A program made the translations under genes and the position numbers. Source: an uncultured bacterium (GTDB taxonomy: Bacteria; Patescibacteriota; Gracilibacteria; BD1-5; UBA2023). Taken from it: 64,000 nt of DNA. The DNA lies in NCBI GenBank assembly GCA_903908595.1, contig CAIVSN010000144.1:1167-65166 (forward strand). The letters run 5' to 3'. The notes beneath the pieces are model-generated. The model was not told the DNA's origin. It ran no database searches and worked only from the letters and a program-made list of their open reading frames with translations. Positions 16,057 to 59,474 of the stretch are shown piece by piece. How positions within the stretch are numbered: position 1 is the first letter of the stretch; each line of letters begins with the position of its first letter.

Positions 16057-16085
16057 TTGCATACGGCTCCCTAGTAGCATATACT
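16057..16085 (+). promoter_or_regulatory. Putative sigma-70-type promoter of the pilin-SPRY gene
   Basis: TTGCAT (16057-16062) - 17 nt - TATACT (16080-16085), 38 nt before the ATG. The same TTGNAT-17-TATACT architecture recurs before other pilin genes. Confidence 0.45.
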
Positions 16086-16122
16086 TTGAACGATTCTCGA
16101 ATCGCATTAATCATTTCGTATC

Positions 16123-17571
16123 ATGGTAAATAAACAAGGTTTCACATTAGTGGAACTCATAGTGGTCATAACTATACTTTCAATCCTTTGAACCATGGGT
16201 TTCATCTCGCTTAAAGGATATTCCAGTTCGGCTCGCGACAGCAGTCGGCTTACGGCGATATCCGATATCAGAAAGGGATTGGAGCTGAGCAACGTGAGGA
16301 CTGGAACCTACCCCGACCCAACCGGCGGAATCGGAGTGACATTTTCCGGCGGTATCGTTTGGACTCAGGGTTCCGTGGGGGATTCCGTCATGCAGATGGT
16401 GAATTCAGACGCATACAAAGCCGGGAAAAAACCGATCGATCCCCTCCATGCCGGAGTGGAGTTCACGTATTCGGTTTTGAATACGAAAAAGGAGTACCAG
16501 CTGGCGACCGTACTCGAAAACGAAGGCACGGCAGGTATCTCGAAAGCATACGTCGGAGGAAATTTCAACGGACTGATAGCGAAAGCGGTAACGGGAACCA
16601 CTACCTACTACCTGACGCTTCCGAGCATTGTCCTGTCGAACCTTGCCAATTCCGAACTTTCCGTACCTTCTACCCAATCCGGAAATCTCGTGTTGCACGA
16701 TAAGACCAACATTCCCAGTACGTACGTCGGCAGGGTACCAACGGGAAACATCGCAGTCACCTTCGATGCGCTGAGGAATTCCAACCTCGTTACGAGCGGA
16801 ACGGGAATCGTCGCCTATTCGAACTCCGGGCCTTTGGATTCCGCCGGAGCCACGGCGCTAATGACCAATCTCTATGCCATATACAATGCGAGCAACCTGA
16901 AGACAGATAGCACGGGCGCGCCACAAATAACCTGATTCCTCAGCGGGGGGAACGGTACGGCCACCTTGACGAACCTCTATAATACGGCAATCCGGGGAAA
17001 CCTGGGGAACACGAACGTCATAGTGGCGACGTCGAACGGGTGAAACAATATGCCGACGGGAACTACCCTCGATCTGGCGCTATCGCACGGAGTAACATGA
17101 AACCTGACGAATGCGCCACCGAGCATCAATTCGAACTACTGAAACGGCTGATTCGCCAATGTCCCCATGAGCTCAGGGAAGTGGTATTGGGAACTGACCT
17201 GCGGAGCGATAAGCCAGAGCGCGTTCTGAATCGGTATCCAGAATTCCAACAATACGACGATTGATCATTTCAACACGACCGGGAAAGGGTGAGTTTTTTA
17301 CTACTGATACAATGGGAACAAGAGTATCGACGGCGTATGGAGCACCTACGGTTGAGGATATTCGACGTCCAGCATCATCGGAGTCCTATTCGACGCCGAT
17401 GCCAGGACGATTGAGTTTTTCAAAAACGGGGTGAGCCAGTGAGTGCTGCCTATCGGGATTTCATGAACCACGTTTTATCCGATCAACCTGAACGGAAGTT
17501 CCGCGCCAGGAAACAACGTCACGTATAATTTTTGAGCGACGGCTTTCGCGTATCCGGGATCGTTCCATTAG
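16123..17571 (+). CDS. Type IV pilin-like protein (prepilin N-terminal methylation domain) fused to a C-terminal SPRY/B30.2-like domain
   Basis: MVNKQGFTLVELIVVITILSIL[TGA]TMGF. ORF 16195-16935 continues in frame through 12 more TGAs to TAG 17569-17571. The tail reads GKWYWELTCG..FGIGI..YYGYNGNK..IIGVLFDADARTIEFFKNGVSQG..YPINL..NFGATAFAYP. Confidence 0.8.
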
Positions 17572-17623
17572 GGAAACGTGGGTAACGCGAGTCGGACGTA
17601 TCGTGGTTGGATAAGGATATGGA

Positions 17624-18274
17624 TTACAACGTATTCGTGATTTCGTTCAATTGTTCGATTTGGGCGTGGATTCTCATCCGTTGCATATCAATGGCTCCTT
17701 TTCATGAGGGATTTTCTACCGTTCCGGCTTTCTCTTGCAGATCGCGTTCGAGCCCGACGAGCTCATTCTGGTGGAGGACAGTCCATTCTTGGATGGAATT
17801 GGTAAAATCTTTCATAAGGGTAACGAATTGGCTTCTCTCGTAGGCTACCATGTCGTCGATTCCCGATTCGAAATCTTTCGGCAACTTGAAAATGAAAGAA
17901 AAACGCCTCCACTTTAAAAGCTTGGAAAAACTTGATTTGGAATTTATCAAATTCTCGCTAACTTTCCGGATTGCCAACTTAATGGATGCAAGGGTCTCGG
18001 GGTCGATTCAGGGTGTCAAAGCATCCTCGGCAATGAATCCGAGGAGTTCGGCATAACTGGCCTTAATGCGCTTTTTATTTTCGACGACAACATTCAATTC
18101 CTCGGCAATTCAAACACGTTCAGTCGCTACGTCGTAAAGTAAGAAAGAAACAATTGAAAAAATGCCGAACGCGAGAGACCAGAAAAAGATTTCATCCTGT
18201 CCATTTAACCAAGGATTTTTAATAAGCACCATGAAAAGCAAAGCGAACAAACCGAAAATAACGTATTGATTCAT
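17624..18274 (-). CDS. Hypothetical membrane-anchored coiled-coil protein
   Basis: ORFs 18110-18358 and 17702-17977 joined in frame through TGAs 18110, 18008 and 17702 to TAA 17624-17626. Start at ATG 18272-18274 (MNQYVIFGLFALLFMVLI, two TM segments). Low-GC segment. Confidence 0.55.
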
Positions 18275-21717: not shown

Positions 21718-21847
21718 GAACCTCATCAAAACGCGAACTCCTTGTCGAATTCTCCGTTCCTCGCTCTACGTACTTGCCAGTACGTTTCGCTACGGTACTC
21801 GAATTCAACTTCGGATTTCATCGTTTTGATGAGGTTCTTGAAGTTTT
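21718..21847 (+). repeat. Copy 3 of the structured post-CDS element
   Basis: Arms GAACCTCATCAAAACG (21718-21733) / CGTTTTGATGAGGTTC (21832-21847). Middle stem GTCGAATTC/GAATTCAAC with a G-U pair. Apical CGTACT-TGCC-AGTACG. Starts at the base after the ZIP stop. Confidence 0.85.
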
Positions 21848-23394: not shown

Positions 23395-23470
23395 AATATT
23401 GTGAAAAGAATGGCGAAATGATAGAGAGAGTTACGTTTTTGTCAAAGTTTATTTCTGGGAAAAAGTGTCT

Positions 23471-23506
23471 GGTGGAAAAGCGGGGCATTTTTGGAACGCC
23501 CCGCTT
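23471..23506 (-). terminator. Rho-independent terminator after the pilin gene 23517-25334
   Basis: AAGCGGGGC-GTTCCAAAAAT-GCCCCGCTT followed by TTTCC on the minus strand, 10 nt after the TAA. Confidence 0.65.
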
Positions 23507-23516: not shown

Positions 23517-25334
23517 TTATTTGTAGATGGTATAGCCGTAGCAGTAGCCGTCACTGACAGCGGAGGTAGAGTCTCAATATATGTTACTTTGAGTGGTACT
23601 ATTTAAATAACCGTATGTATCACCGCAATATCCATGAGAACAGAGGCTCTGATTTCCATTTGCCATAGTCGTGGTAACTCCGGAAAGCATCGACTGTACT
23701 CATTTACTATATACGTTCAAACCATTCACACGTAAGAATAATGAGCAAGCATAGCTATCCGAAGTTGTCGACCTGTAGATATTATAAATATACCCATTGG
23801 CCGTACCAGTAGACCAAGGGGAATTCTCAGTAATGGTCGTAGTGGGATGGGAAGACCCGTCGCTACTGTTCACATTTGGGCTTACTTGCTTTATCAAGCT
23901 GCAAGCGTACGTTGATTCAGAGGGGGTCTCATAGTGGATGGAATGATTCGGGCTGTATACTCAATATGTTGCGTGTATTCTCCATCTCCAAGAATTCGTG
24001 CCGTTTGCGGGATGTTGATACGAATCGGGATAAAACATCGTAGCGTGATTTTTCGCGGCTTCCACTTCGCACTGCGTTAACGTCATGACTCCAAGATTCT
24101 TGGTATAGGCATTGCGAATACACGACGGACAAGATCCGCCATTGGAAGACCACCCCGAAGTATCCGAAGCCAAGGAATTTCTCAAAGCACAGGCCGACCC
24201 ATCCCAAGCGTATCCCCAGCCAGTATTGCACTTGTACTGGCAGGTATTCGTCGCGGGACTCGCGAAATATCCCGCCGTCACCGCATTGAGCGAGGTTCCG
24301 CCGGACGCGCTCGACAGCGAGTAGCTCGACGTGGTATTGAAATATACTGAACCCGTTGGAAGTCCCGTACAGGCCCCGTCTACCAACGTGTTAGCCGTGC
24401 CGCCCCCTCCGCCCCCTCCCGCGCTTCCCCCCAATTGCGCGCTCACCAAACTCGTCCCGAACGACGCGAACGACCCGCTTGAGGTATTCATGAGCGTCGC
24501 GATGTTCTGGTTGCTTCTGATATCGGATCCGGAATACGCCGCCTGCAATGCCGCCACCATGGCGTTCAGGTCCGCCGCGCTCGCCGGCAATCCGCTCGGG
24601 TTCGAGGCCGTCTTCGCCCCGGAATGCACCACCGCCCCCGGAGGGAACGCGCTCGCCCCACGCAGGGCCTTCCCGTTGAACAGGAGCGAGCCCGAAAGCG
24701 AGCCTATGGGAGCGGAAGCCCCCGCAACGCTCCCGCTGTTCGTGAGGATGCCCGGGACGGCGAGGACGTACACCATGCCCCCCGTGCTCACCTTCGCGGT
24801 AAGCCCCCCGAAGTTCCCCCGGACGTAGGCCATGGAAGGGTTCCCGGCTTCGGCGTGGGCGGTGCCCGCGAGGAAGCCCGCGTCCGCGGCGTTCTGCGCC
24901 AGGTCGCCCTCGTACTCCGCCTTCAGCTGGTACGCTTTCCCTTCGGCGAGGGAAGAGTACCCGTACTCCGTGTTCTTCAGCGGGTCCAAGGGCTTCTCGT
25001 TGAGCCCCCCTCCGGCGATCGTCCCCTTGAAGTACTGCATGACGAGCGGTCAGACCGTCCCCTGGTTCCAGACGGTCCCACCCGAGTGCGTCACGGCGAA
25101 CGAGCCGTCCGGCAACGGATAGGAGCCCGATACGACCACGGAAAGGTCCAAAGACTTGGATGCCTGCGCGAGGTCGCCAATGCGGGCGGAGTCGCGGGCG
25201 CGCGACGAATAGCCCCCTATCGAGAGGAAGCCGATGGTGCCGAGGATGGCGAGGATAGTTATGACGACTATAAGCTCGACGAGGGTGAACCCTTTGAGTT
25301 TCCGGGATGCGGAAGGTGGTTTGGTGAAGAACAT
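23517..25334 (-). CDS. Type IV pilin-like protein with a large Cys-rich C-terminal domain (605 aa)
   Basis: MFFTKPPSASRKLKGFTLVELIVVITILAILGTIGFL. ORFs 25050-25505, 23961-25040 and 23700-23897 are in one frame, joined through TGAs 25050, 23961, 23700 and 23574. Stop TAA 23517-23519. The tail contains >15 Cys (CQYKCNTGWGYAWDGSAC...). Confidence 0.85.
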
Positions 25335-25567
25335 ACCGAATATGGTAAAAAAGTATCGTATCGACCAAAGTTTACTACATGTTATATGGAAAACAAAAGA
25401 AAATCGACAGTTTGACATTTCTACTTTGGATTGACAAGAAAATCGACAGTTTATTTTTGGGAAAATAGTGTCTGATGGAAAAGCGGTTCGGAAAACGTCG
25501 TTCAATTATCTGCTTCAAACTTATCCGAAGCATTTGCCGAACCACGAAGTTGTAACGGAACCCGATA

Positions 25568-25626: not shown

Positions 25627-26262
25627 CTAATTCTTCTGACAGTACAACAGCGCGATATACGGCTGCATGTTGTCCGGGGCGGTTCCAGCTCATACTATAG
25701 TGGCTATAGCAGCACCTGCCAATGATGTATCAATGGTACCTCAGATAGATCAGGATTTCATCGGGATCGATGGAGTGGCATCTGAATAAACCCTTACGGC
25801 ACCAGCATATGTCCCAAGAGAGGTACCCGTGGGATTAGTTCAAAAATTACCTCAACTTGACCCATTGAGGCTTAAATTGTTTACAGTAGTTATGCTGACT
25901 CAACCAAGCGATACCGTGACGTTCGCATCACTCAGGGATGGTTTGCTTTTGTCTCAACCCATATCCCCCACGCTCGCATTGCTGCCAGCACCATTCCCCC
26001 GTCCGATAACCGTCCTTCCGGCAGCGGCCGAATATTCGGTCCAGCCGCTTGGGCAGCTCGCGAGATTGAAGCTCATGACCGCACCGGTCGGAATTCCGCT
26101 CTGAACGGTGTTCACGAGCTGGTTCCATTTCTGATAGTCGAGCTTGTCGCCGCTCGATGCCGTGAGCCCGGCCCAGGCGTAGACTCCGGTAGCGGTGAGC
26201 GCGATGGTGGCGGCAAGGCTCAGCGCGTATTTGCCGGCCGTCTTCATGGTTTGGTTTTTCAT
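25627..26262 (-). CDS. Secreted phage-tail-collar-like (MdpB-like) protein, paralog A
   Basis: MKNQTMKTAGKYALSLAATIALTATGVYA signal. PTGAVMSFNLASCPSGWTEYSAAAGRTVIGRGNG. Seven TGAs (25954, 25900, 25852, 25840, 25750, 25741, 25690). Ends ...APDNMQPYIALLYCQKN*. Alternative start 26283. Confidence 0.65.
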
Positions 26263-26387
26263 ATGGGTAAATTGGTTTTTCATATGGGTAAAAGTGAAAA
26301 GATAAGTTGAGTCTTTGCGTCCGTACTTATACCAAATTCATTTGATTCACCTGGCCTGCGAGCAAGTGGAGTTAGATTAATATGGTA

Positions 26388-26578
26388 TTAGAGCGAACAA
26401 TCGTCCACCGAGCTTCCATCGGTCGTCCCGTTTCAAAGGACGCAAGCTTCGGAAGCTCCCGGAGACTGCGACCCGCCTCACGTCGTGATTTTCCCGCTGA
26501 GCTGGTTGGAAACGATGGCGGTGCCGAGACTTTGAATGGCTCGGGCTCCGGTCGCGGAAAGGAGGTCAGCAAGGCTAG
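26388..26578 (-). pseudogene. Relic 3' fragment of a pilin gene, duplicated together with the collar gene
   Basis: Reads ...SLADLLSATGARAIQSLGTAIVSNQLSGKITT[G]GSQSPGASEACVL[G]NGTTDGSSVDDCSL*. About 140 nt are near-identical to the 3' end of pilin 27214-28248. It has no N-terminal half and abuts the stop of collar gene B. Confidence 0.75.
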
Positions 26579-26582
26579 AAAA

Positions 26583-27167
26583 CTAATTCTTCTGACAGTA
26601 CAGCAGCGCGATATACGGCTGCATGTTGTCCGGGGCGGTTCCTCAGCCTGCAATGGACGTCGTCACTCAGCCAAGATTCACGGGAGCTACTGGTGGCGTT
26701 CCTGTTGGCAGATAAATTGCGGCTGACGTTGGACCCGCAACTGTGCTCGTAAGTCATAAGTTTCAAGATTGTACCATAATCGCTCCTCCTGTTGAAGACG
26801 TACCCACCGAAATATTCGTAGTTACCGTTGCGCTCGAGAGACTCGGAGCGCTCTTCTCCCCTCCGACGTCTCAAACACTTGCATTACTCCCCGCGCCGTT
26901 CCCCCGTCCGATAACCGTCCTTCCGGCAGCGGCCGTATATTCGGTCCATCCCGTCGGACAGCTCGCGAGATTGAATGCCGCGACTTCGCCCGGAATTCGA
27001 CCGCTCTGAACGGTATTCACGAGCTGGTTCCATTTCTGATAGTCGAGCTTGTCGCCGCTCGATGCGGTAAGCCCCGCCCAGGCGTATACTCCGGTAGCGG
27101 TGAGCGCAATAGTGGCGGCAAGGCTCAGCACGTATTTGCTGGCCGTATTCATGGTTTGGTTTTTCAT
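26583..27167 (-). CDS. Secreted phage-tail-collar-like protein, paralog B
   Basis: MKNQTMNTASKYVLSLAATIALTATGVYA... N-terminal ~95 aa and C-terminal ~20 aa nearly identical to paralog A, with a divergent middle. Five in-frame TGAs. Stop TAG 26583-26585. Confidence 0.65.
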
Positions 27168-27213: not shown

Positions 27214-28248
27214 TTAGAGCGAACAATCGTCCACCGAGCTTCCATCGGTCGTCCCGTTTCAAAGGACGCAAGCTTCGGAAGCTCCCGGAGACTGCGACCC
27301 GCCTCACGTCGTGACTTTCCCGCTGAGCTGGTTGGAAACGATGGCGGTGCCGAGATTCTGTACCGCGGTCGTTCCGGTCGCGGAGAGGAGGCTTGCCACA
27401 TTGGAATTGGACGCGACGTCGGATCCGGCATAGGCGGACTTGAGCGCGGTTACCATGGCAGTGATCTGTCCGCTGGCGTCGCTTCCGGGAAGACCCGCGG
27501 TACTGGTGAAGACGACCCCGCTATTGGTTCGGGCGTTGGGATTGTAGGTACTGGCGTTCAGAAGGGGCTTACCGTTGAAGAGGAGGGTGCCGGAGAGGGC
27601 GTTGCTTTCGATCTTGAGGGCGTTGCCCGCCCCGGTCCCGCTGTTGGTAACGATGCTCGGGACGGCGAGGACGTAGGTGACGGATCCTGTGACGGTCCTG
27701 GCGGTGAGCCCTCCGTAGTTCCCACGGACATACGCGATCGTGGGGTTGCCGGCGTCGGCGGAGGCGGTCTGGACGAGTGGGTTTCCGGTTTGGTAGTAGG
27801 CGGTCGGATTCGGGAGGTCGTTCTCATATTCGGACTTGATCTGGTAGGCGTTGCCGAAGGCGAGAGTGGAATAGGTATATTCGGTATTCTTGAGCGGATC
27901 GAGGGGCTTTTCGTTGAGCCCACCCCCCGCTATCGTCCCCTTGAAGTATTGCATGACGTTCGTTCATACCGTTCATTGGTTCCAAACCGTTCCGCCGGAA
28001 TAGGTGACGGCGAAAGCGTTGTCCGGGATAGGATAGGCTCCGGCGGTGACGACGGAAAGGTCGAGAGATTTGGCCACTTGGGCGACGTCTCCTACCCTGG
28101 CGGAATCCCGGGCTTTGGAGGAATATCCGCCGATGGCGAGGAAGCCAATGGTTCCGAGGATCGCGAGAATGGTTATGACTACGACAAGCTCCACGAGGGT
28201 GAAGCCTTTGAACTTCCGAGAAACGGAAGATTTTTTGGAGTAGAACAT
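27214..28248 (-). CDS. Type IV pilin-like protein (344 aa, short C-terminus)
   Basis: MFYSKKSSVSRKFKGFTLVELVVVITILAILGTIGFL. WNQ[TGA]TV[TGA]TNVMQYFKG matches WNQGTVGSLVMQYFKG of the paralog near 59 kb. TGAs at 27973, 27964, 27304 and 27259. Stop TAA 27214-27216. Confidence 0.85.
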
Positions 28249-28282
28249 ACCGGATGTGGTAAAAGAATATCGTATCGCCCAA

Positions 28283-28311
28283 AGTATATTGCAAGTTTAC
28301 ACGAAAATCAA
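28283..28311 (-). promoter_or_regulatory. Putative promoter of pilin 27214-28248
   Basis: Minus-strand TTGATT - 17 nt - TATACT. The -35 hexamer is fused to the T13 tract. Confidence 0.45.
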
Positions 28312-28322
28312 AAAAAAAAAAA
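28310..28322 (-). repeat. Homopolymeric T13 tract (A13 on the plus strand) at the -35 edge of a pilin promoter
   Basis: 13 consecutive A at 28310-28322, read directly. Confidence 0.9.
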
Positions 28323-28595: not shown

Positions 28596-30602
28596 TTAAT
28601 GCACCAGCACCATCACTATCGGTTCCTTCCCGATCTCCTCGAAAACGAAATCCTGGATTTTCTTCCCAGCATAGCTTCGGAAATCGTCCACCCCGGAAAA
28701 CCGTTGAATTTCATTTTTCAGGGTCGTATCGAGAAAGTCGTAAATCCGGTCCTCCAATCCAGGGAAATTCCCCAGTCCGGGCATTCCCGCGAGATCGAGC
28801 TTGAAGAGGTATTCTCCCGGCTTCTTCGCGATGGAAACCGCGATGGTTCCGTTTTGTCGGAGCTGTTCCCGGTCGTGGATTTCCTTTTCGGTCGTCATTC
28901 CGACGGTATATCCGTCGGTCGTGATGAGCCGATGGGAAACGAACATGTCCGTAATCCGGAAGTCGTCTTTCGTGAATTCGATGATCTGGCCGTTTTTCGA
29001 AATGATGACGCGGTCCTTGGTGTATCCCACCTCATACGCGTTCTTGGCGTTCCCGTAGATCATGTGCGGATATCCGTAGACCGGCATGTAAACCTCGGGC
29101 CGGATGAGGGAAATCATCCTTTTGGTATCTTCCGCCCGGGCGTGTCCCCCGGCGTGGATTTCGGATTCCTTGTATTGGTAGATCCGGGGCCCCTGGGCCA
29201 TGATGATATCGAAGAGCCCTTGGACGTTCCGTTCGTTCCCCGGAATGACCGAACTGGAGAATACCACCGTGTCCGACGGGCGGAGCGCGGTATCCTTGGA
29301 TTCCCCGGTCGCGATCCGCATGAGCGCGGCGTAGCGTTCCCCCTGAGCTCCGGTACAGCAGATGGTCACCTTGTTATCGGGAAGCCGGTTCGCCTCCTCC
29401 ATGGAAATGATCGTTCCCGGTTTCGGCTTGGCGTAACCGAGCTTGAAGGCGATGTCCATATAGTTGTTCATCCCCCGTCCGAGCAGCACGATCTTTCGGT
29501 CGAATTTTTCGGCAGTCGCGATGATGAGCATGACCCGGTCGATAATCGAACTGAACGTCGCGGTAATGATGCGGTTTTCGGATTTTTTGAAAATTTCCTC
29601 GATGGAACCGATGACTTCGGATTCGGAAATGCTGGATCCAGGAAGGTGTGCGTTGGTCGAGTCGGACAAGAGGGCCCGGACTCCCCGGTTCCCGATGCTT
29701 TCGAGGAGGCTAAAATCGGTACTCGGGCGGTACGGCAACGGATTCGTGTCGAATTTCCAGTCCCCGGTATGGACGAAGCGTCCCACGGGAGTCTCGATGA
29801 GGAGGCCCACGGAGTCCGGAATGGAGTGGTCCACCGTGAACGGCATGATCTGGAAATGCGTTCCGAGGGAAAATGTCGCGTTCCGGGTAATCCGTTCGAG
29901 ATTGCTCATCGGTTCGCCGTTTTCCCCCTGCTTCATCGCGATGAGCTCGAAGGCCATGGAGGTCGCGTACGTCGGGATGTTGCGCCCGAGCTGCTTGACC
30001 GCGAAAGGAACCGCGCCGATATGGTCGATATGCCCGTGGGTGATGACGACTCCGACGACGTTCTTGCCCTTGAGGTACGCGAGATCGGGAATGCTTCCGT
30101 TAATTCCGTGCTGGTACTGGTCAGCGAATTGGATTCCCATGTCGATGATGAGGATTTCGCCGTCGTACTCGAACGCGGTACAGTTGAGCCCTACCTGCTC
30201 GACCCCCCCGAGCGGGATGATGCGGAGCACGCCCTTCGGCGTAGGGGTGGGCTTGAGTTCCTCGTATCCGAGAAACGACTTGAGCGCCATTTGCGGGGTA
30301 ACGAACGGAAACGACCGCTTGTTGCGGAATTTTGGGATGCTGACGAAGCTGGAACCGGGCTCCACCTTCTTGCCTCCGACTTCGGAACGCCGATCGGAAC
30401 GGGCATAGTAGCCATCCTTTTTGGAAACGCCCGGAGAGGCGGAACGGGGGGCGGGGCGGGAGGCGGGGCGAGGATCCGCATGGGGGGATTTCGCTTTCGG
30501 TGCCGGTCGTGATGGCAGTCTGGCATCGGAACCGGTTGCCGGTTTCGGTGCGGGAGTAGGAAACGTCTCGTCTGGAGTCAAGTCCAATGAATCTTGGGTC
30601 AT
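28596..30602 (-). CDS. rnj: Ribonuclease J (metallo-beta-lactamase/beta-CASP) with a ~100-aa Pro/Ala/Ser/Lys-rich N-terminal extension
   Basis: HxHxDH motif VVITHGHIDHIGAVPF; beta-CASP-like middle; 668 aa. Confidence 0.9.
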   Translation of the reverse strand: MTQDSLDLTPDETFPTPAPKPATGSDARLPSRPAPKAKSPHADPRPASRPAPRSASPGVSKKDGYYARSDRRSEVGGKKVEPGSSFVSIPKFRNKRSFPFVTPQMALKSFLGYEELKPTPTPKGVLRIIPLGGVEQVGLNCTAFEYDGEILIIDMGIQFADQYQHGINGSIPDLAYLKGKNVVGVVITHGHIDHIGAVPFAVKQLGRNIPTYATSMAFELIAMKQGENGEPMSNLERITRNATFSLGTHFQIMPFTVDHSIPDSVGLLIETPVGRFVHTGDWKFDTNPLPYRPSTDFSLLESIGNRGVRALLSDSTNAHLPGSSISESEVIGSIEEIFKKSENRIITATFSSIIDRVMLIIATAEKFDRKIVLLGRGMNNYMDIAFKLGYAKPKPGTIISMEEANRLPDNKVTICCTGAQGERYAALMRIATGESKDTALRPSDTVVFSSSVIPGNERNVQGLFDIIMAQGPRIYQYKESEIHAGGHARAEDTKRMISLIRPEVYMPVYGYPHMIYGNAKNAYEVGYTKDRVIISKNGQIIEFTKDDFRITDMFVSHRLITTDGYTVGMTTEKEIHDREQLRQNGTIAVSIAKKPGEYLFKLDLAGMPGLGNFPGLEDRIYDFLDTTLKNEIQRFSGVDDFRSYAGKKIQDFVFEEIGKEPIVMVLVH

Positions 30603-30627: not shown

Positions 30628-31134
30628 TTATAAAGTATGTATGAGAACGATTACGCAGGGAATCCTTCAGAGGATTTCCTTGAGCAATTTTTCGATATCC
30701 TGCTTGAGCAATCGGTTCAGGTCCTTGATTTCGATATCCGGAATGTCCTGGATGGCAATCTCGTAGAATTCCCGGGAAGCGCTCACGATCTGGGAATGGA
30801 GCATTTTCCCATTCTGGGGAAGCATGAGCCCGCGGCTTTCGAGGTGGACCCCGGAAAGCAGCGCCCGCGAATCCGTATCGCAAAGGTACGTGACGACCAA
30901 AACCCCCTGTTCCTGCATCAGGGCGCGGAGTTCCGCGACATGGGGCGGAAGCTTCGGGTGTCCCCCTCCGGGATTTTTTCCGGGTCAGCGGGGATTGCGG
31001 TGATTCGGCTTCTTCTGGAAGCCAGGATGCCCTCCGGAAGGGTGCGGGGGGCGTGGCGTAACGTCACCGAAAACGTCCGAATATTCGGAACCGGGGTTGG
31101 GAGTATGACCGTATCAGGGCCTGTGGGTATTCAT
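30628..31134 (-). CDS. Hypothetical protein with a Pro/Gly/His-rich N-terminus and a folded ~85-aa C-terminal domain
   Basis: ORF 30667-30918 ends in TGA, so under code 25 it runs to TAA 30628-30630. The upstream frame stays open through TGAs 30985 and 31114 to ATG 31132-31134. The alternative start at ATG 30916-30918 is equally possible. Confidence 0.4.
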
Positions 31135-31294: not shown

Positions 31295-32482
31295 TTATTT
31301 CATATAAAACAAGTATTTATTTAGGGCAATCGGGATTTTCGTGGTATCCCAACTGTATTGCGGAATCGGATCCGACTCGAATGCGGTGCCGACAAACTCC
31401 TGGTTCGGAAATATTTTTTTTTGGAAAAAAACGTACTTCGCCTTCAGTATTTTGCTGGACTTGGCACGCTTGGCGAAGTCGTCGTTATGGAACATATAGT
31501 AGTTGAACGATTCCCCGAAATCCTCATACTTGTTGGTCATGGCATACCCGCTGACGAAGTCCGAGAGGGCCATTTTTGGTTTTTTCGTGGACGTGTCGAC
31601 CCAGGAAATCGCGTAGAACGCATCGCTTGGGTCCGATAAAACCCGGCCTTCCGTCAAATATCGGATATCCACCACGTGCCCCAGCTCGTGGGCAAGGACC
31701 TTGATGCTTTCGTATTCGGAAGCGAGCGGGGCAACCAGGCTTACCTTCTCCGTGGTCATTTGCCCCCGGGGTTCGATCCGGTCATCCACGATCTCCACCA
31801 GGATCGGGGATATCATGGATTCCAGTTTCTTGCTCGAAAGCAAGGCCCGGTAGTTGCCGACAAGCGATGGCGAAACGGTTTTTGCGGCAAAAATGTTCAT
31901 TTCGTATTTCCTGGGAGCGCTGCCAAGGGAATCGGATGAATCGGCGGGCGGAGAATCGGGAATCGCGGGCGGTTCGGGCTCGGGAGGGGCAGCTGGCTCC
32001 GGTACGGGAGTAACGGTTGGCTCCGGTTCAGAAACGACCACGGGCGGGATTTCCGTCACGGGTTCGGGAACGACGGCAGATTCTGTCGAAACGATCGGCT
32101 CGGGATCGAGCGTAACGGGCGGAGGCGGAATATCCGTCACGGGTTCGTCAACTTTTGCGGTTTCCCCGTCCGCAGGAGATTCCGAAACGGTCGGCTGGAC
32201 CGGGGTTTCCTGTTCTATCGGCTGGGGCAACGCTTCCGGATCCTTCTCGATCGCGGATTCCGCCGAAGGCGACTCTGCGGGGCTTTCGGCCGTTTCGCCC
32301 CGGGTCCGGTCGATTACGACGACCATTTTGGGAGATTCGGTATTCTTGGCTTCGCGGAACGGATTGGCTTCGTCGAAATCGGCATCCCGACTGGCAATTT
32401 CCCCGCTCGAAAGGGACATCCAGGAAAACATCAGGACGGTGAAGAAACAAAAATAGAAAGCGAAGAGCGAATATTTCTTCAT
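31295..32482 (-). CDS. Secreted putative zinc metallopeptidase (HExxH) with a Pro-rich linker
   Basis: Signal/TM MKKYSLFAFYFCFFTVLMFSWM; P/E/T-rich spacer; KVLAHELGHVVD motif. Start overlaps the stop of the upstream mini-pilin by 1 nt. Confidence 0.7.
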   Translation of the reverse strand: MKKYSLFAFYFCFFTVLMFSWMSLSSGEIASRDADFDEANPFREAKNTESPKMVVVIDRTRGETAESPAESPSAESAIEKDPEALPQPIEQETPVQPTVSESPADGETAKVDEPVTDIPPPPVTLDPEPIVSTESAVVPEPVTEIPPVVVSEPEPTVTPVPEPAAPPEPEPPAIPDSPPADSSDSLGSAPRKYEMNIFAAKTVSPSLVGNYRALLSSKKLESMISPILVEIVDDRIEPRGQMTTEKVSLVAPLASEYESIKVLAHELGHVVDIRYLTEGRVLSDPSDAFYAISWVDTSTKKPKMALSDFVSGYAMTNKYEDFGESFNYYMFHNDDFAKRAKSSKILKAKYVFFQKKIFPNQEFVGTAFESDPIPQYSWDTTKIPIALNKYLFYMK

Positions 32483-33066
32483 TACCCGCTGGTACTATAA
32501 ATCAGCTTGATGATCGCGTTCACGAGGGGAAACGACAGGAGCATCATCACGAATCCGATGATGCCGAACTTGAGGGAACCCTTGGCCTTCTTGATTCGCT
32601 CGTCGTCTCCGGCGGCTATGGTATAGAGGATGCCGGCGTACACGATAGCCCCGACCGAAAGGATGGATCCGGCGAGGATGAGCTGGTTGGCTATAGCGAT
32701 GACCTTGTCGCGGGCGCCGCCTTCGACTTTGTAGTCTCCTTCGGAAGATATCGCCTTGTCGGGTTCGCAGCCGGCAAGCATGTCCTTGACCGACATGCCT
32801 TCGAAACTGTCGACGTCCATGGGTCCGCAGGGATTCCCGGCCACGGTAGCGGCAGCTCCTCAACCTCAGCCTCCAGCTCAGGCGGAGGAGGCTCAGGCGG
32901 AGGAAGATCAGGCTCCGGCAGCATTCGAATCCGACATAGCTCATAGATTTGCAGCCTGATTGTTTGCCTCAGCGGAATTTCCATCTTCATTTGCCCATGC
33001 CGTTCCGCCAATCGAAAGTGACCATGCGAACCAGCCCAACAGCATCGCCGAAAGTATCTTTTTCAT
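32482..33066 (-). CDS. TrbC/VirB2-like (T4SS-pilin-like) small membrane protein, paralog 1, with a Gly/Ala/Ser linker
   Basis: Signal MKKILSAMLLGWFAWSLSIGGTAWA from ATG 33064-33066; G/A/S linker containing 7 TGAs. Two-TM hairpin LILAGSILSVGAIVYAGILYTIAAGDDERIKKAKGSLKFGIIGFVMMLL. Confidence 0.6.
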
Positions 33067-33070
33067 AAAT

Positions 33071-33445
33071 TTAAAAGGAAAAGCCGGAAACGATCCGGAT
33101 CGCGACGTACGCCAGCGGCGCTATCGTCAGGCCTATGACGATATACACGAAAGCGATCCAGGCCTTTTTGAATTCCTCGGGATCGCCTTTGGCCGTGAAA
33201 AGCCGGTACCCGATGAACACCATCGATCCGATCGCGATAACGACGTACGAACCGATGAGATAGGATTGGATCGTTTTGAGAAAGTTGCCCTGTATCGTGA
33301 CGTCCGTGCTTTCTTCGGCGCTGTTCGACCCTCCGCCGACAAGCAGGTCTTCTTCCAGCGAACCCGCCGCATACGCGGGCACCGTCAAAATGGCCAATGA
33401 GAAACAAAAAACCAAGAGCGACAAGACTGACAATACGTATTTCAT
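33071..33445 (-). CDS. TrbC/VirB2-like small membrane protein, paralog 2
   Basis: Signal MKYVLSVLSLLVFCFSLAILTVPAYA; two-TM hairpin separated by AKGDPEEFKKA. Confidence 0.6.
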   Translation of the reverse strand: MKYVLSVLSLLVFCFSLAILTVPAYAAGSLEEDLLVGGGSNSAEESTDVTIQGNFLKTIQSYLIGSYVVIAIGSMVFIGYRLFTAKGDPEEFKKAWIAFVYIVIGLTIAPLAYVAIRIVSGFSF

Positions 33446-33446
33446 G

Positions 33447-33818
33447 TTATGAGATTTTAAGGGCGTTGATGGCTTCGATGATGGCGTAGGCCGCCCCGCT
33501 CAGCACGACCCCGATCAGGGCGTACTGGATAATACTTTTCGCCGATTTCACCTTGCTTTCGTCGCCATAGGAGAGCATCATGAGGATTCCCGCGTAGGTC
33601 AGGGCCAGGATGGCCAGGATGCCCGAAAGCATGATGGCCTGCTTGATGATTTTGGCGATGCTGGTATCGATGCTGGCGTCCTCGAAGGGAAGACCCAACT
33701 TGTCGGGTTCGGGAAGCGAATCCGCCGCGAAAACCGCGCCGGTATGAAGCATGGCCAACGTGGCCAAAATGCCAAGCAGCATGGTTATCTTGAGGGAACG
33801 GGAAAAATTTAGGCTCAT
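33447..33818 (-). CDS. TrbC/VirB2-like small membrane protein, paralog 3
   Basis: Signal ...MLLGILATLAMLHTGAVFA; hairpin MLSGILAILALTYAGILMMLSYGDESKVKSAKSIIQYALIGVVLSGAAYAI. Confidence 0.6.
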   Translation of the reverse strand: MSLNFSRSLKITMLLGILATLAMLHTGAVFAADSLPEPDKLGLPFEDASIDTSIAKIIKQAIMLSGILAILALTYAGILMMLSYGDESKVKSAKSIIQYALIGVVLSGAAYAIIEAINALKIS

Positions 33819-39567: not shown

Positions 39568-39622
39568 AGACTGTCAACGACCGAAACGTCAGAAAACTAT
39601 CTTATATCTTCACATTTTTCCT

Positions 39623-40039
39623 ATGGGACTCGCAGAAAAAAGAGTAATGAAGCAATTCCAAGATGAGCAGCTTACAAAAATGCAAGCAGAGATGAAGGAA
39701 CTTGCCGGGGTTGAAATACCGTTTGAAGTAGAGTGGGAATCGCTTCCCCGCGAAAATAGCGCCAGCTTTCTGATGGACGGGCTCAACTACGTGTTTTTCC
39801 TTCCGGTTCTGGAAGCGTTCCGATCTGTCTGCGCCGACGAAATGGGCAAGGAAGCCATCGCCGCGAACTTGAAAAAAATCGTCATACGGAACTCCGAAGC
39901 AAAAGAGGGAAGCCCTCAGCCGGAAATCTCGTTCCTGGACGGGGTCCTCCTTATCGATCAGCGGCTCTCCAATAGCGACGAGAACTATATGAAGGAACGC
40001 ACGAAGGTGGTCATTCGTGCATTGGAAGCCGGTTTGTAA
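39623..40039 (+). CDS. Hypothetical protein, tandem paralog B (138 aa)
   Basis: MGLAEKRVMKQFQDEQLTKMQAEMKELAGVEIPFEVEWESL...ALEAGL*. Confidence 0.7.
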   Translation: MGLAEKRVMKQFQDEQLTKMQAEMKELAGVEIPFEVEWESLPRENSASFLMDGLNYVFFLPVLEAFRSVCADEMGKEAIAANLKKIVIRNSEAKEGSPQPEISFLDGVLLIDQRLSNSDENYMKERTKVVIRALEAGL

Positions 40040-40923: not shown

Positions 40924-42522
40924 ATGAAAGTCATTTTCGTCACCGGAGGCGTTTTGTCCGGAATAGGAAAAGGCATTACCGCTGCCAGCATCGGGGCCAT
41001 TCTTAAGGGAATGGACCATCGCGTGTTCTGCCAGAAATTCGACGGGTACCTCAACGTGGATCCCGGCACGATGAGCCCGTTCCAGCACGGGGAAGTCTTC
41101 GTCACGGAAGACGGGACGGAAACGGATTTGGACCTGGGCCACTACGAGCGTTTCCTCGACGTCGAGCTCAACAAGTATTCCTCGTTCACGACCGGAAAAA
41201 TCTACGAGGAAATCATTTCCCGGGAACGAAAAGGAGAATATCTGGGCGGAACCGTGCAGATCGTTCCTCACCTGACGGACCTCATCAAGGAAAAAATCAC
41301 GCTCGGGCACCAGACCTCGGGGGCGGATATCACCATCGTGGAAATCGGAGGAACCGTCGGCGACATGGAAAACGAATACCTGCTCGAAAGCGCCCGCCAA
41401 CTCCACACGGAGCTCGGGCGGGAAAACGCGATTTTCGTGCACGTAGCGCTCCTGCCCTACCTCGGCGCGAGCAAGGAACTCAAGACCAAGCCGGTGCAGC
41501 ATTCCGTGAGGGAACTCATGAGCTACGGCATTACGCCGGATTACCTCGTGCTCCGCGCGGACATGCAAATCCCGGACGACGTCCTCGAAAAGGTCGCCCG
41601 CGCCACCGGTATCCAGCATTCCCATGTCATTCCGGCAGCGACGGCGGACAGCATTTATCACGTTCCTTTGGATTTCGAAGAAAACCGCCTTTCGGAGAAA
41701 CTTTCGGCAAGCCTCGGACTGCCAAGCCGGAAATGCGATCTCGCGAAGTGGGAGCATCTCGTGGATAACATTTCCGCGTCCGAAGAAATCCTGAACCTGG
41801 GAATGATCGGCAAGTACAACGATCTCGAAGACGCGTACTACTCCCTCAACGAAGGGCTCCGGACGGCCGGGTATTTTTACCGGAAAAACGTGCGGATACA
41901 ATTCATCGATGCGACGCTCGTCGAGAAAAAGGGTATATCCGTCCTGGAAGGACTGGATGGCATCTGCATTCCGTGAGGATTCGGGGAACGCGGCATCGAA
42001 GGCATGGTGCTCGCGACCGAATACGCTCGGACGAACAAAATCCCGTTCCTGGGGATTTGCCTCGGCTCGCAGATCATGGCCATCGAATTCGCGAGGAACG
42101 TCCTCGGTATCGCGGACGCGAACAGCGAAGAATTCTCGCCAGAAGGCAAGTCGAACGTCGTCCGCATCATGGAAACCCAGAAATCGGTACGATCGAAAGG
42201 CGGTACCATGCGGCTGGGAACCTATCCGTGCGAGATTAGGAAAAGGACGCTCGCCCACGAAATCTATGGAGTGGAAACCGTTTCCGAACGGCACCGCCAC
42301 CGTTTCGAGTTCGACCCGGAATACCGGGAACGGATGGAACAGGCGGGATTCGTGGTTTCAGCGGTATCCCCCGACGGGTTGCTCGCGGAAATCGTCGAGC
42401 TCCGGGACCACCCGTACATGATCGCCACGCAAGCGCATCCGGAATTCAAGTCGAGGCCGACCCGGCCGCACCCGCTGTTTTTGGGGTTGGTACGGGAGAT
42501 GGGAAAAAATGCCAAGGGCTAG
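40924..42522 (+). CDS. pyrG: CTP synthase
   Basis: MKVIFVTGGVLSGIGKGITAASIG...; ORFs 40924-41976 and 42004-42522 joined at GICIP[TGA]GFGERGIEG = PGGFGxRG of the glutaminase domain (TGA 41974-41976); GICLGSQ active-site Cys. Confidence 0.95.
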
Positions 42523-45822: not shown

Positions 45823-45949
45823 CCGGAAACCCCGAGAAAATGATGAAATCCGAAGTCGGTTTCGAGCACCGGAGCGAGGCGTGCTGGCAAGCACGTTGAG
45901 CGAGGAGCGGAAAAACCGACGAGGGGTTCGCATTTTCTCGGGGTTTCCG
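45823..45949 (-). repeat. Copy 4 of the structured post-CDS element (between sufS and sufU)
   Basis: Arms CCGGAAACCCCGAGAAAATG (45823-45842) / CATTTTCTCGGGGTTTCCG (45931-45949), 19 bp perfect. Middle stem GTCGGTTT/AAACCGAC. Apical CGTGCT-GGCA-AGCACG. Confidence 0.9.
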
Positions 45950-48242: not shown

Positions 48243-48369
48243 CTTGGAATCGCGAGAAAATGATGAAATCCGAAGTCGGTTTTGAACACTGCAGCGAGGC
48301 GTGCTGGCAAGCACGTTGAGCGAAGAGCGGAAAAATCGACAAGGAGTTCGCATTTTATCGCGATTCCAA
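48243..48369 (-). repeat. Copy 5 of the structured post-CDS element (between sufB and the sufA/D fusion)
   Basis: Arms CTTGGAATCGCGAGAAAATG (48243-48262) / CATTTTATCGCGATTCCAA (48351-48369). Middle stem GTCGGTTTT/AAAATCGAC. Apical CGTGCT-GGCA-AGCACG. Confidence 0.9.
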
Positions 48370-50646: not shown

Positions 50647-52260
50647 TTATTTTATCCAAATGATACCGGATTGATTATCATATGATCAAGCGCCCGAAAT
50701 ATCAAATCGCATTCAATTCTCAGTACTGTAGGTACTATACCCAAAACGTTGTCAAAAATTACTATAGGCGGTCGGCAAATATTGAGTACCGTCGAAGTAT
50801 CACGATACATCGGTTCCCGCGGCATTCGTTTCCGCATTGTTCAGTGTCGAATACACTGTACATAGGAACGATCCCGCACAACTTCATCCGGAATTCATTC
50901 GGAGATCCGTAGGCCATGTTTTGCCGCTCGTCCTGTGATACCAATCGGAAGCGGATTGGTCGGATCGGACCAATTTCAAGACGGAATTCGTTCTGGAACT
51001 TATGGCATTCAAATCCGCAGTACTCATCCTTCCGCTCGTTCCGAACGTTTTGTTCACTATACTGCTCAAATTGCAACCATTTGAATTGTTGTAACACGCA
51101 GCCCCCATATTCCCGTTCGTGATTTTGAAGGCAAGCGACCACCCTCCGCCATCCGAAGTCATATCGCAGTAAGCCTTGAAACTGCTGGTACCAGTAGGAT
51201 TTATCCAATATACGCCATCGCCGGTATCTCCGGTATACAGTTTCGGGGCGGACGGATTCTTGTATGAGAAGCAACTCGTAGCATACGTCCCGTCCGCCCA
51301 ATTCCTTCATGTAGTGTCGTTTCCGGAAATATATCCGCTTGCCACGGGGACGATCAATGGGGAAACCGTGCTTGTTCCTCCGAGATGCCCGACCAACATG
51401 CTGGTGCCATAGGTCGCGAGGGAACCGCTTGACAGGGAAACGAGCGTCGCGATGTTCCGGTCGGACCTGAGGTCGCTTCAGGAATACGCGTTCTGAAGCA
51501 TCGTCATCATCGAGGAAATCTCCGAGTCCGTACTCGGAAGCTTGGCTCAAGAGAACACCACTTGGGCAGGGTTGAACCCACTCGCGTTTCGAAGCGCCTT
51601 CCCATTGAAAAGGAGGGTACCGGAAAGCGAAGCCACGGGCACGGGAGCCCCATTGGTGGTCCCGCTGTTCGTAACGATGCTCGGGATCGCGAGAACATAG
51701 ACGCTGCTCCCCGTGGTCGTTTTCGCGGTAAGTCCCCCGAAATTCCCACGGATGTAGGCCGTCGCCGGATCTCCCTCTGCGGCGAATGCGGATTCAACGA
51801 GCAAGTTTCCATTCATAGCCGCTTGGTTCATATCCCCTTCACATTCCGCCTTGATCTGGTAGGCCTTCCCTTCCGCGAGAGTGGAATACGTATATTCGGA
51901 ATGCTTCAATGGATCGACGGGTTTTGTTCCCAATCCCCCTCCCGGAATGGTAGCTTTGAAATACTGCATGACGAGCGGTCCGATAGTTCCCTGATTCCAG
52001 ACGGTTCCCCCGGAATATGTCACGGCAAACGAATTATCGGGAAGCGGGTATGATCCGGAAGTGACGATGGCAAGATCCAAAGATTTGGATACCTGTGCAA
52101 TGTCCCCGATCCTCGCCGAATCCCGGGCTTTGGACGAATACCCGCCGATAGCGAGAAACCCGATGGATCCAAGTATCGCAAGAATAGTGATTACTACGAT
52201 AAGTTCTACGAGAGTGAATCATTTGATTTTCCTCCGGAAGGGATATTGCCTTGTACACAT
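50647..52260 (-). CDS. Type IV pilin-like protein fused to a C-terminal fibrinogen-related (FReD-like) domain (537 aa)
   Basis: MCTRQYPFRRKIK[TGA]FTLVELIVVITILAILGSIGFL, with TGA 52219-52221 as the Gly(-1) of the prepilin site. Nine TGAs in total. Tail: ATSCFSYKNPSAPKLYTGDTGDGVYWINPTGTSSFKAYCDMTSDGGGWSLAFKITNG. Stop TAA 50647-50649. Confidence 0.8.
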
Positions 52261-52300: not shown

Positions 52301-52329
52301 AGTATAATCCACGAAGGGAGGAAATTCAA
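52301..52329 (-). promoter_or_regulatory. Putative promoter of the pilin-FReD gene
   Basis: Minus-strand TTGAAT - 17 nt - TATACT followed by GTCGATT, 40 nt before the ATG. Confidence 0.45.
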
Positions 52330-57230: not shown

Positions 57231-57394
57231 GGCTCGATGATACCATTCATGAGATGGGGTGTCAAAAAATGGGTGGTTTGGGAGACGGATGCGAGAATGG
57301 AAGCCCGTCGATCAAAACGCGTGTCAAAAAATGGGGGCAGTTTCGGAGGAAAATGCGCCGGCCGGCTCCCCCTCTCGCCGGCCGTCTCTTGGTA

Positions 57395-57511
57395 AACCCT
57401 CTCGAAACGATGAAATCCGAAGTCGATTTTGAGCACCGTAGCGAGGCGTTCATTGGTACGGAGAGCGAGGAGCGCAAAAATTGATGAGGAGTTCGCGTTT
57501 TGGTGAGGTTC
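57395..57511 (-). repeat. Copy 6 of the structured post-CDS element (most degenerate arms)
   Basis: Core conserved (GATGAAATCCGAAGTCGATTTTGAGCACCGTAGCGAGGCG...GAGCGAGGAGCGCAAAAATTGATGAGGAGTTCGC). Right arm CGTTTTGGTGAGGTTC is almost identical to the copy 3 arm. Lies 40 nt after the pilin stop. Confidence 0.75.
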
Positions 57512-57551
57512 TTACGATGAAGAGACAGAAGTGACGAAAGCGTCGAATACC

Positions 57552-59474
57552 CTAATTCTTGAGGCAACGGAGCGAGAACCCGTTCCCACGAGTATTTGAA
57601 TACGCGATATTGCCGCCGCCGGAGGAGAAGTCTGCGATGTAGGAGTTCGGGGAATACGGAGACGACGACCAGTAGTAGCCGCCCGACCCCTGATTGTAGT
57701 AGTACCCATTAATCCAATGCCGGTACCCGGCAAGGGGGAGCTTGAGCGCGCACCGGGTCCGGTCGTACGCGTTCGCCTGGTTGCAGGAGCCGAAAGCGGC
57801 GTTCGAATTGACGATGGCGTAGAGCGTTCCCCATTGGGTGGAGGTATCCGACGTTCCGCCGGTCGGGATATGGTATCCGGACGGGCAAGGTCACTGGGCG
57901 TCGCCGCCGTTGCCGGCGTTCCATCCGCCGGACGGGTTTGTGGCCCCGGCCCATTTCCAGTCGCCATAAAAGGCTTCCCCCTGGTAGAAGTTCGGGGTTC
58001 ACGTGGTATTCGCGGGCGACGTGAGCGTCCCGCCGTACTGGCTGGCCGTCCAAGTCCCGGAAGTGACGATGTCGTTGCGCCCCCACTGGTAGTAGTTGCC
58101 CTGGACGGCCGCAACCCGGTTGATCGGCAGGGCTGACGCGGTCGCGGTCGGGTTCGGCGACTGCGCGGGAACGGCATCGTACCCGGCCGAGGTCGTGGCG
58201 CCCACGTTGCAGGCGGCCCAGATCTGGACGTTGTCGGTGCCCTGTTGCCATACGGCGATATCGTTGGTATCGCAGGACGGATCGGACTTCGTGCCGCTCG
58301 TGCCGATGCCGGCGGCGGTTACCGTGACGTTGGTTCCGCCGTAGGAGAACTGCTGGGATGGCGCGTAGGTAGTGGCGGAAGCGTATGCTGGAGCCATCGG
58401 GGTCGGGGTTCCGCTTCCCCCGCTCGTCGTCGCTTTCCCGCCGAGCTGATTGGACACGATGGCGGTGCCGAAGCTTTGGACGGCGCCGGTGCCGGTGGCG
58501 GAGAGGAGGGACGCTACGTTCGTATTGGAGATTACGTCAGAGCCGGAGTAGGCGGACTTGAGGGCCGTCACCATGGCGGTGATCCGGCCGTCCGCGTCGC
58601 TTGCCGGAAGCCCGCCGGTGCCGGAGAAGACGACTCCGCTGTTCGCGCGGGCGTTGGGATTGTAGGAAGAAGCGTTCTGGAGCGGCTTGCCGTTGAAGAG
58701 GAGGGTGCCGGAGAGGGCGTTCTGCTCGATCCGGAGGAGGTTTCACGCCCCGGTCCCGCTGTTGGTGATAATGCTGGGTATCGCGAGGACGTAGGTGAAG
58801 GAACCGGTGACGGTCTTGGCGGTGAGTCAGCCGTAGTTGCCACGGACATAGGCGATAGTGGGGTTGCCGGCTTCGGCGGAGGCGGTCGGAAGCAAGGGAT
58901 TGCCGGCTTGGTCGGAAGCGGTCGGGACGAGCGGGTTGCCGGCTTGCCCGCCGTCCCGGTACGCCGTGGGATTGGGGACGTCGTTCTCGTAGTCGGCCTT
59001 GATCTGGTAGGCGGTGCCGAAAGCGAGGGAGGAGTAGGCGTATTCGGAGTTTTTGAGGGGGTCGGTGGGCTTGTCGTTGATACCGCCGCCGTTCACGGTA
59101 CCCTTGAAGTACTGCATGACGAGGGATCCGACGGTTCCTTGGTTCCAGACGGTCCCGCCGGAATAGGTGACGGCGAAGGAATTGTCCGGTACCGGGTAGG
59201 TACCGGCGGTGACGACCGAGAGGTCGAGGGACTTGGAGATCTGGGCGACGTCGCCGACGCGGGCGGAATCGCGGGCTTTGGAGGAGTATCCGCCGATGGA
59301 GAGGAAGCCGATGGTGCCGAGGATGGCAAGTATGGTGATGACTACGACGAGCTCAACGAGGGTGAAGCCATGGAAGGATTTTTTCTCGGGTTTCGAACCG
59401 TGGGCAATCCCAGTGGCATGGGAAGCGCGAACGGTTGCGGGGACGGATGCGTTGGCATTCTTTGTGGGTTTCAT
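57552..59474 (-). CDS. Type IV pilin-like protein fused to a C-terminal FISUMP-like (Fibrobacter succinogenes major paralogous) domain (640 aa)
   Basis: ...KKSFHGFTLVELVVVITILAILGTIGFL. ORFs 58827-59681 and 57999-58574 joined with the tail through TGAs 58827, 58743, 57999 and 57891. Tail: NYYQWGRND...[G]PCPSGYHIPT...LKLPLAGYRHWINGYYYNQGSGGYYWSSSP...GFSLRCLKN*. Confidence 0.8.

Follow-up and report, generated by a model that had tools for sequence, protein, structure and literature searches.

Five modular type IV pilin-like proteins with different C-terminal heads on one carrier in a code-25, Gracilibacteria-type genome

Gracilibacteria, bacteria that have not been cultivated and use an altered genetic code, are believed to live as predators of other cells or in attachment to them. 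The proteins closest to those described here are the modular pilins, which have been defined experimentally and surveyed (more than 1,200 proteins in 264 architectures); in the excerpted text of that survey, a Candidatus Gracilibacteria protein stands for one of the 15 most frequent architectures (Raynaud et al., 2021, PMC8179133). The same text describes Streptococcus sanguinis PilB (vWA head) and PilC (ConA-like lectin head), in which a prepilin motif, a pilin module and a short linker carry a ligand-binding head, and three further cases, the large minor pilins CofB of enterotoxigenic Escherichia coli (ETEC) and GspK of the type II secretion system (T2SS), both located at the tip, and the tip adhesin PilY1/PilC, in which an additional domain for binding is borne by a carrier that goes into the filament, with the tip as its probable place (PMC8179133). 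A closed Gracilibacterium genome of the BD1-5 group encodes 15 GspG proteins of 528 aa on average (Sieber et al., 2019, PMC6851277). Here we analyze a 64-kb stretch of DNA from an uncultured bacterium (contig CAIVSN010000144.1; this whole stretch of 64,000 nucleotides is called the window), which encodes five large paralogs that we name pilins A to E. We propose, with a probability of roughly 60%, that these are five modular type IV pilin-like proteins with interchangeable heads, which a filament would display as an attachment repertoire.

The five proteins share with S. sanguinis PilB and PilC the order of motif, pilin module, linker and head, and with the BD1-5 genome the presence of many large GspG/pilin-like paralogs in a code-25 bacterium from the candidate phyla radiation (CPR). 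They differ from the S. sanguinis type in several respects. The pilin module of S. sanguinis PilB is small (PMC8179133), whereas here a conserved, lineage-specific part of ~290 aa, which we call the carrier, lacks a fold match in the PDB; and the window holds at least five paralogs with four different heads within 64 kb. The heads of pilins A and D (SPRY and fibrinogen-like) are not among the architectures quoted in the excerpted survey (PMC8179133), and pilins A to E have no sequence similarity or detectable structural similarity to CofB, GspK or PilY1/PilC. As excerpted, the BD1-5 study counted GspG proteins only, and describes neither carrier, head diversity and duplication history nor a link to diversity-generating retroelements (DGRs) (PMC6851277). 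Both modular pilins and a Gracilibacterium with numerous large GspG-like paralogs have been published before; the present work adds a definition of the ~290-aa carrier common to the family, the finding that it has no match in the PDB, an inventory of the heads, the duplication history, the generic nature of the promoter, the coupling to DGRs in sister lineages and an intact code-25 family member in a Magnetospirillum genome.

Read under genetic code 25, all five open reading frames (ORFs) coincide exactly with the positions given in the first-pass annotation of the window (Table 1). In a six-frame motif scan the G-FTLVEL prepilin motif occurs exactly five times in the window, once per pilin gene, and all five proteins begin with the class III signal peptide G↓FTLVEL(I/V)VVITIL (arrow, processing site). 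N_methyl (PF07963) matches all five above its cutoff (E = 6e-8 to 5e-7; 9.9e-8 for pilin A), as does TIGR02532; the N-terminal helix that the same annotation had taken to be common to the family is therefore present in every member and, as judged by the FTLVEL motif, nowhere else in the window. The predicted architecture consists of a leader ending in G↓FTLVEL, a hydrophobic alpha-1 helix, the carrier, a linker and a paralog-specific head. The linker, rich in Gly, Ser and Thr, follows a conserved QLGG, at which sequence similarity among the paralogs ends; beyond it the heads are unrelated sequences.

Table 1. Positions of the features discussed (window coordinates, except for the DGR cassettes, which lie on two other contigs).
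Feature	Position	Strand	Description
Pilin A	16123-17571	+	482 aa; class III signal peptide, divergent carrier, C-terminal SPRY head (residues 353-471)
Pilin B	23517-25334	-	605 aa; carrier, Gly-rich linker, orphan Cys-rich head of ~290 aa
Pilin C	27214-28248	-	344 aa; carrier alone, short tail with Cys-x15-Cys loop
Pilin D	50647-52260	-	537 aa; carrier and fibrinogen-like head, YCDxxxxGGGW motif
Pilin E	57552-59474	-	640 aa, 34-aa leader; carrier and FISUMP/C-type-lectin-like head
Relic	26388-26579	-	63 codons and stop of the pilin C 3' end; no start codon; same frame as X1, one codon past the X1 TAG
X1	26583-27167	-	194 aa, family not assigned, directly downstream of pilin C
X2	25627-26283	-	218 aa, N-terminal hydrophobic segment, tandem duplicate of X1 (88% DNA identity)
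Promoter of A	16057-16085	+	sigma-70-like TTGCAT, 17 nt, TATACT
Promoter of C	28283-28311	-	sigma-70-like TTGATT, 17 nt, TATACT
Promoter of D	52301-52329	-	sigma-70-like TTGAAT, 17 nt, TATACT
Promoter-like element of B	25369-25396	-	TTGTTT, 16 nt, TAAACT; weaker; position homologous to the C promoter
PilB/GspE-type assembly ATPase	318-1685	-	T2SSE family, PF00437 E = 1.8e-111
DGR cassettes in two Gracilibacteria metagenome-assembled genomes	L162 10001-13818; L161 10001-13875		bAvd, template repeat, reverse transcriptase
Copies of the ~105-bp repeat	206-306; 3111-3156 and 3320-3387; 21727-21827; 45837-45936; 48257-48356; 57405-57502		

The five genes are open only under code 25; ORF calling under table 11 splits every one of them into fragments, with 13 in-frame stops in A, 4 in B, 4 in C, 9 in D and 4 in E. 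All 34 are TGA, and the true stops of the genes are TAA or TAG. When the genes are aligned with paralogs and database homologs, each TGA codon in the well-aligned part of the carrier stands opposite a near-invariant Gly (10-13 of 13 sequences; for example IL-G-T, K-G-FTL and GTV-G), and therefore we assign code 25 (UGA = Gly) to the organism. This code is used by Gracilibacteria and Absconditabacteria, and the assignment agrees with the source names given to the database homologs. By these sequence features, the host of the window appears to be a code-25, Gracilibacteria-type bacterium.

Among pilins B to E the carriers share 58-81% of their residues over ~300 aa, with a variable loop at about mature residues 145-175, and pilin A is 35-41% identical to them. 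A carrier hidden Markov model matches pilin C at E = 6.4e-155 and pilin A at E = 4.5e-56. The conserved core quoted in the first-pass annotation accordingly holds for B to E, and so does its claim that only the C-terminal modules differ; in both respects pilin A departs from the pattern. At four-fold degenerate sites B to E are 42-58% identical, against 37% expected from composition, which is near saturation. Because these sites are close to random while protein identity is 58-81%, the duplications are old and the carrier is under purifying selection; we conclude that B to E are old paralogs held by selection. The same divergence bears on the concern, raised with the original call, that the paralogs might be collapsed or chimeric metagenome repeats: DNA identity between the copies is only 70-77%, too low for mis-joining, and each copy lies in a unique housekeeping context (NusB/RNase III, RNase J, SUF operon, exonuclease). 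Nothing in favour of such an assembly artefact was found, the concern arising only from the metagenomic origin that the database hits suggest, and we consider it excluded for practical purposes.

Domain searches assign different heads to this one carrier. In pilin A the head is a SPRY domain (PF00622, E = 1.6e-8, 35.1 bits against a cutoff of 26.3), and in pilin D it is fibrinogen-like/GGGWT (PF00147, E = 1.2e-5, above cutoff; NF040941, E = 7.4e-13). For pilin E, a FISUMP-like head is assigned by homology to the heads of two database homologs, P0003 and P0013; it is 34% identical to the P0003 head over 256 residues (E = 1e-18). The head of pilin B has only five relatives among 5.8 billion clusters. 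Pilin C has no head and ends in a 30-residue tail with the Cys-x15-Cys loop; it is a candidate for the bulk subunit. A prepilin motif, a linker and a domain not specific to pilus biology, the combination that defines a modular pilin, are found together in A and D, with domain scores above cutoffs, and in E by homology.

The carrier family is large. In a library of representatives at 50% identity, 1,724 clusters match at E <= 1e-10 and 83 at <= 1e-30, with members mostly of 500-1500 aa, and many database entries of the family appear as table-11 fragments. Contigs of Gracilibacteria and Peribacteria hold full-length carriers, frequently as tandem arrays of 2-4. In a set of 48 homologs, the heads that could be recognized include FISUMP (6), ConA-like lectin (3, and one more of the 3-keto-disaccharide hydrolase type), DUF285/BspA-LRR (3), TSP1 and Lcl_C/DUF1566; most heads among the 48 match no Pfam family. 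One homolog, P0001, is a near-identical strain variant of pilin C, and another, P0005, resembles pilin B along the carrier and diverges past the QLGG linker. A metagenome scan with single-protein patterns found no relative, and an alignment-based scan found only relatives of at most 40% identity. The first-pass annotation had proposed a modular adhesin repertoire on a common pilus scaffold. Its modular part, different C-terminal modules on one carrier, is borne out by the domain searches and by the other heads in relatives; the adhesin role and the incorporation into a pilus, together with peptidase cleavage, filament insertion and adhesin display, are steps that we infer from the sequence.

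Two relatives connect the heads with DGRs, whose variable proteins include some that end in C-type-lectin-fold, DUF1566 or FISUMP domains; a survey of DGRs lists FISUMP and a GspG-type pilin domain among the target domains (PMC11661182). On contigs L161 (P0003) and L162 (P0013), a bAvd gene, a template repeat and a reverse transcriptase (RT) gene lie immediately downstream of a pilin gene that encodes the carrier and a FISUMP-like head, and the last 189-194 nt of the pilin gene are a variable repeat. The mismatches between variable and template repeats fall at template adenines in 15 of 16 cases in L161 and in 18 of 20 in L162. Because of this concentration at template adenines we read the repeats as a DGR signature; the heads of the two relatives examined are, by this signature, mutated by the adjacent DGR. 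The head of pilin E is homologous to these DGR targets, and the last ~190 nt of its gene align with the variable repeats of both, to a common ...GFS(L/V)RCLKN end.

If the five proteins work as modular pilins, a prepilin peptidase would cut between G and F, and a PilB-driven machinery would move the alpha-1 helix from the membrane into a type IV filament. The carrier would pack into that filament or cap it, and the linker would let the head project. The heads would then bind distinct surface glycans or proteins of host or prey cells, so that the five together may form a repertoire of attachment specificities. The family itself arose through gene duplications of old date, after which heads were replaced at the linker.

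For the structure of the carrier we used a family profile and AlphaFold models of two homologs, P0003 and P0014, the latter 60% identical to pilin C. The profile matches solved pilins over alpha-1 only (positions 8-73; E 3.6e-12 to 1e-3), namely Geobacter PilA-N, S. sanguinis PilE1, MshA, PpdD and GspG. The P0014 model has a mean predicted local distance difference test (pLDDT) score of 86 and a predicted template modelling (pTM) score of 0.79, with the carrier at high confidence. As modelled in the homologs, the carrier consists of a ~50-residue alpha-1 helix, an antiparallel beta-sheet (pLDDT > 90 in P0014), a low-confidence variable loop and a C-terminal three-helix bundle, past which the linker is predicted to be disordered.

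Several of our observations count against a repertoire borne by a filament. In Foldseek searches against the PDB neither the bimodular nor the carrier-only homolog model found a match (best E ~1.4-1.6); because the globular part lacks a PDB match, the five are placed in the type IV pilin superfamily by their signal peptide and alpha-1, and within these models a canonical pilin fold is supported over alpha-1 only. To our knowledge, the ~290-aa carrier far exceeds any characterised pilin module in size; it may pack in the filament body, or may occur at the tip only. The six-frame prepilin motif scan showed no small canonical major pilin in the window. The PilB/GspE-type ATPase is the window's sole gene for pilus machinery; the scanned window genes include neither PilD nor PilC, and PilM/N/O-type machinery is not in the 64 kb. 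The ~290-aa Cys-rich head of pilin B has no Pfam family and no known fold, and the FISUMP matches of pilin E are below curated cutoffs. Unlike the DGR variable proteins, pilin E has no DGR components in the window: tblastn under code 25 with the L162 RT and with the L161 and L162 bAvd gave nothing better than E = 0.3, and no second (template) copy of the pilin E 3' end occurs in the 64 kb. By sequence, pilin E is a homolog of DGR targets, and either its DGR lies elsewhere in the genome or diversification has ceased.

The very large subunits (344-640 aa), the lack of a structural match to solved pilins past alpha-1 and the lack of a small canonical major pilin in the window also fit our main rival explanation, surface display without polymerisation, in which the class III signal and alpha-1 would serve as a membrane anchor or short stalk and the carrier as a spacer that keeps lectin-like heads on the cell surface. 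The Sulfolobus 'bindosome', made of sugar-binding proteins with class III signals, offers a comparison. Against it stand the invariant mature F1 and E5 and the strongly conserved alpha-1, which are the residues used in filament assembly, and the PilB ATPase encoded in the window; moreover, experiments have shown that modular pilins with bulky heads enter type IV pili, as the excerpted study reports (PMC8179133). We regard display without polymerisation as unlikely, but worth serious attention.

The alpha-1 matches also raise the question of T2SS-like pseudopilins (GspG), which would act as a periplasmic or cell-wall export piston. Weak NCBIfam/Pfam matches to GspG/T2SSG do cover the N-terminal ~65 residues, automated annotation often gives such proteins this name, and they are called GspG in the excerpted Gracilibacterium genome paper (PMC6851277). 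These matches, however, reach 23-28 bits against a cutoff of 88.85 (TIGR01710/PF08334 test) and are confined to alpha-1, and pilins A to E have 344-640 aa where GspG has about 130-150 aa. Lectin-like, DGR-diversified C-terminal heads would make no sense on an internal piston; and the published Gracilibacterium genome, in the same excerpt, lacks the PilQ secretin, consistent with no outer membrane (PMC6851277). A GspG-type piston is very improbable in our judgement.

We then return to the proposed modular pilins and the way their genes are expressed. The three TTGnnn-17-TATACT strings before A, C and D lie where the first-pass annotation had placed them, but its further claim, that the pilin family shares a promoter architecture, fails, as the TATACT box is generic. 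TATACT occurs in 22 copies on both strands of the window. Nine of these stand 15-110 nt upstream of same-strand predicted starts, in 5.1 kb of upstream windows, which gives 1.75 per kb against 0.106 per kb elsewhere and compares with 1.9 hits expected from local composition; six of the nine precede non-pilin genes, and TTGnnn-N16-18-TATACT is also found before the genes at 59908 and 61124. TATACT ~30-55 nt before the start codon is the general -10 box of the genome, part of an ordinary sigma-70-type promoter. A pilin-specific promoter or operator was ruled out, the motif being genome-generic.

Four of the five pilin genes (A, B, C and D) have a promoter-like element of their own, close to consensus in A, C and D, and all five are predicted from sequence to be independently transcribed. 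Pilin E has no TTGnnn/TATACT element within ~110 nt of its start. In its upstream region (59538-59748, - strand) the sole promoter-like site is weak and lies ~250 nt from the start; it is followed, ~65 nt ahead of the ATG, by a hairpin with a T-run that resembles a terminator. The region has no Rfam match and could be a long regulated leader. The near-identical leaders of B and C, as first reported, are real: DNA homology between the two loci pairs 24721-25403 with 27626-28318 and reaches ~70 bp upstream of the start codons. Since homology extends this far upstream, the likeness of the leaders is explained by common descent of the B and C loci.

Downstream of pilin C lies the fragment that the first-pass annotation had called a relic. 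It is a real copy of the pilin C 3' end. Compared with the last 63 codons of that gene, its protein identity is 87% and its DNA identity 93%, and the final 33 residues are identical; its end had been set at 26578, one base short of the coding frame (26579). The same event also copied X1, which explains the relic by tandem duplication: the relic and X2 arose, to judge from their sequences, by a recent tandem duplication of a unit made of the pilin C 3' end and X1. X1 and X2, between pilins C and B, each have an N-terminal hydrophobic segment and a conserved ...NMQPYIALLYCQKN end, and no entry of Pfam, NCBIfam or the PDB sequences matches them. A direct repeat of 38-39 nt (92% identical; 23446-23483 and 25448-25486) brackets pilin B with its promoter and terminator, and could mark an insertion or duplication of the B cassette.

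A promoterless 3' fragment, several dispersed paralogs with identical 5' coding ends and one tract shared by C and E with 83-92% identity at four-fold sites (from 13-23 sites only) speak for antigenic or phase variation of the pilE/pilS kind, by gene conversion into one expressed locus or by mutually exclusive expression, which would serve to escape recognition by host or phage. All five copies, on the other hand, are complete, with a start codon and a signal peptide, and four carry a promoter-like element; synonymous sites near saturation indicate no ongoing homogenisation; the heads are domains without relation to each other and not versions of a single sequence; and a simple tandem duplication that included X1 accounts for the relic. 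Variation of this kind seems to us quite improbable.

The best match to the carrier among GTDB representative genomes comes from an isolate assembly of Magnetospirillum sulfuroxidans J10 (L001, NZ_JAGTUF010000002.1, about 9995-12046). There, an intact ORF of 686 codons encodes the same carrier with an ELWxxDGT-repeat head. It is open only under code 25. TGA occurs in frame five times, the first time at the Gly of G↓FTLIEL and twice within NIN-G-TLYF; the ORF lies in a ~2.3-kb AT-richer segment between integrase, PIN and resolvase genes of the alphaproteobacterial genome. The named scaffold-length homologs of this carrier are all from Gracilibacteria (46-53% identity). The copy would be either a recent transfer of a code-25 gene, not translatable in an alphaproteobacterium, or a chimeric assembly.

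One may extend the modular pilin proposal to a broader picture, which we consider distinctly unlikely as a whole. In this picture the filament of code-25 CPR bacteria would itself be formed by the ~290-aa carrier, as a pilus subunit of a new structural class, with pilin C as the bulk and the head-bearing paralogs interspersed or placed at its tip. The heads, exchangeable at the linker and rewritten by DGRs in some lineages, would set the host or prey to which the cell can attach, and the Magnetospirillum copy would be a trace of physical association.

The remainder of the window was mapped by a self-trained code-25 gene prediction, which is approximate for short genes. The pilin genes are dispersed among housekeeping genes (TilS, YidC, RnpA, RNase III, NusB, RNase J, a ZIP transporter and the SUF operon); the ORF at 40924-42522 is presumably CTP synthase, judged by eye from its N-terminus, and the amidase at 61124-62569 is taken to be GatA-like. 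The full RNase J gene (28596-30290) stands beside a 96-aa ORF (30628-30918), both on the - strand; this ORF matches the RNase J C-terminal domain only, and may have arisen by partial duplication or may reflect a gene wrongly split in the map. A tandem pair of ~137-aa genes (38996-39506 and 39523-40038, +; 76% DNA identity), function not assigned, has a TATACT box before each gene.

The surface proteome encoded in the window is rich. It includes an SLH-domain protein (3469-4506, -), a 2,434-aa protein with long internal repeats of 89-96% DNA identity (4593-11897, -) and a VIT-VWA protein (13577-15910, -), whose gene is divergent from pilin A and adjoins a gene for an extracytoplasmic function (ECF) sigma factor (12994-13518). 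Four tandem small paralogs at 32482-34315 (-) match T4SS_pilin/TrbC (VirB2-like) and form a second pilin paralog cluster, unrelated to pilins A to E. A dispersed intergenic repeat of ~105 bp, with copies 78-89% identical and an internal palindrome CGTAC-TGGCAA-GTACG, looks like a repetitive extragenic palindromic (REP) or miniature inverted-repeat transposable element (MITE); one copy (3111-3156 and 3320-3387) is split by a ~160-nt insertion, and another (57405-57502) lies directly downstream of pilin E. Rfam and tRNA scans of the window found nothing.

For annotation, the lesson is that this pilin family is visible only under code 25, as table 11 breaks up each gene. The family provides defined proteins for tests of expression, localisation and binding, and one carrier with interchangeable lectin-like heads is a candidate host-range determinant of Gracilibacteria.

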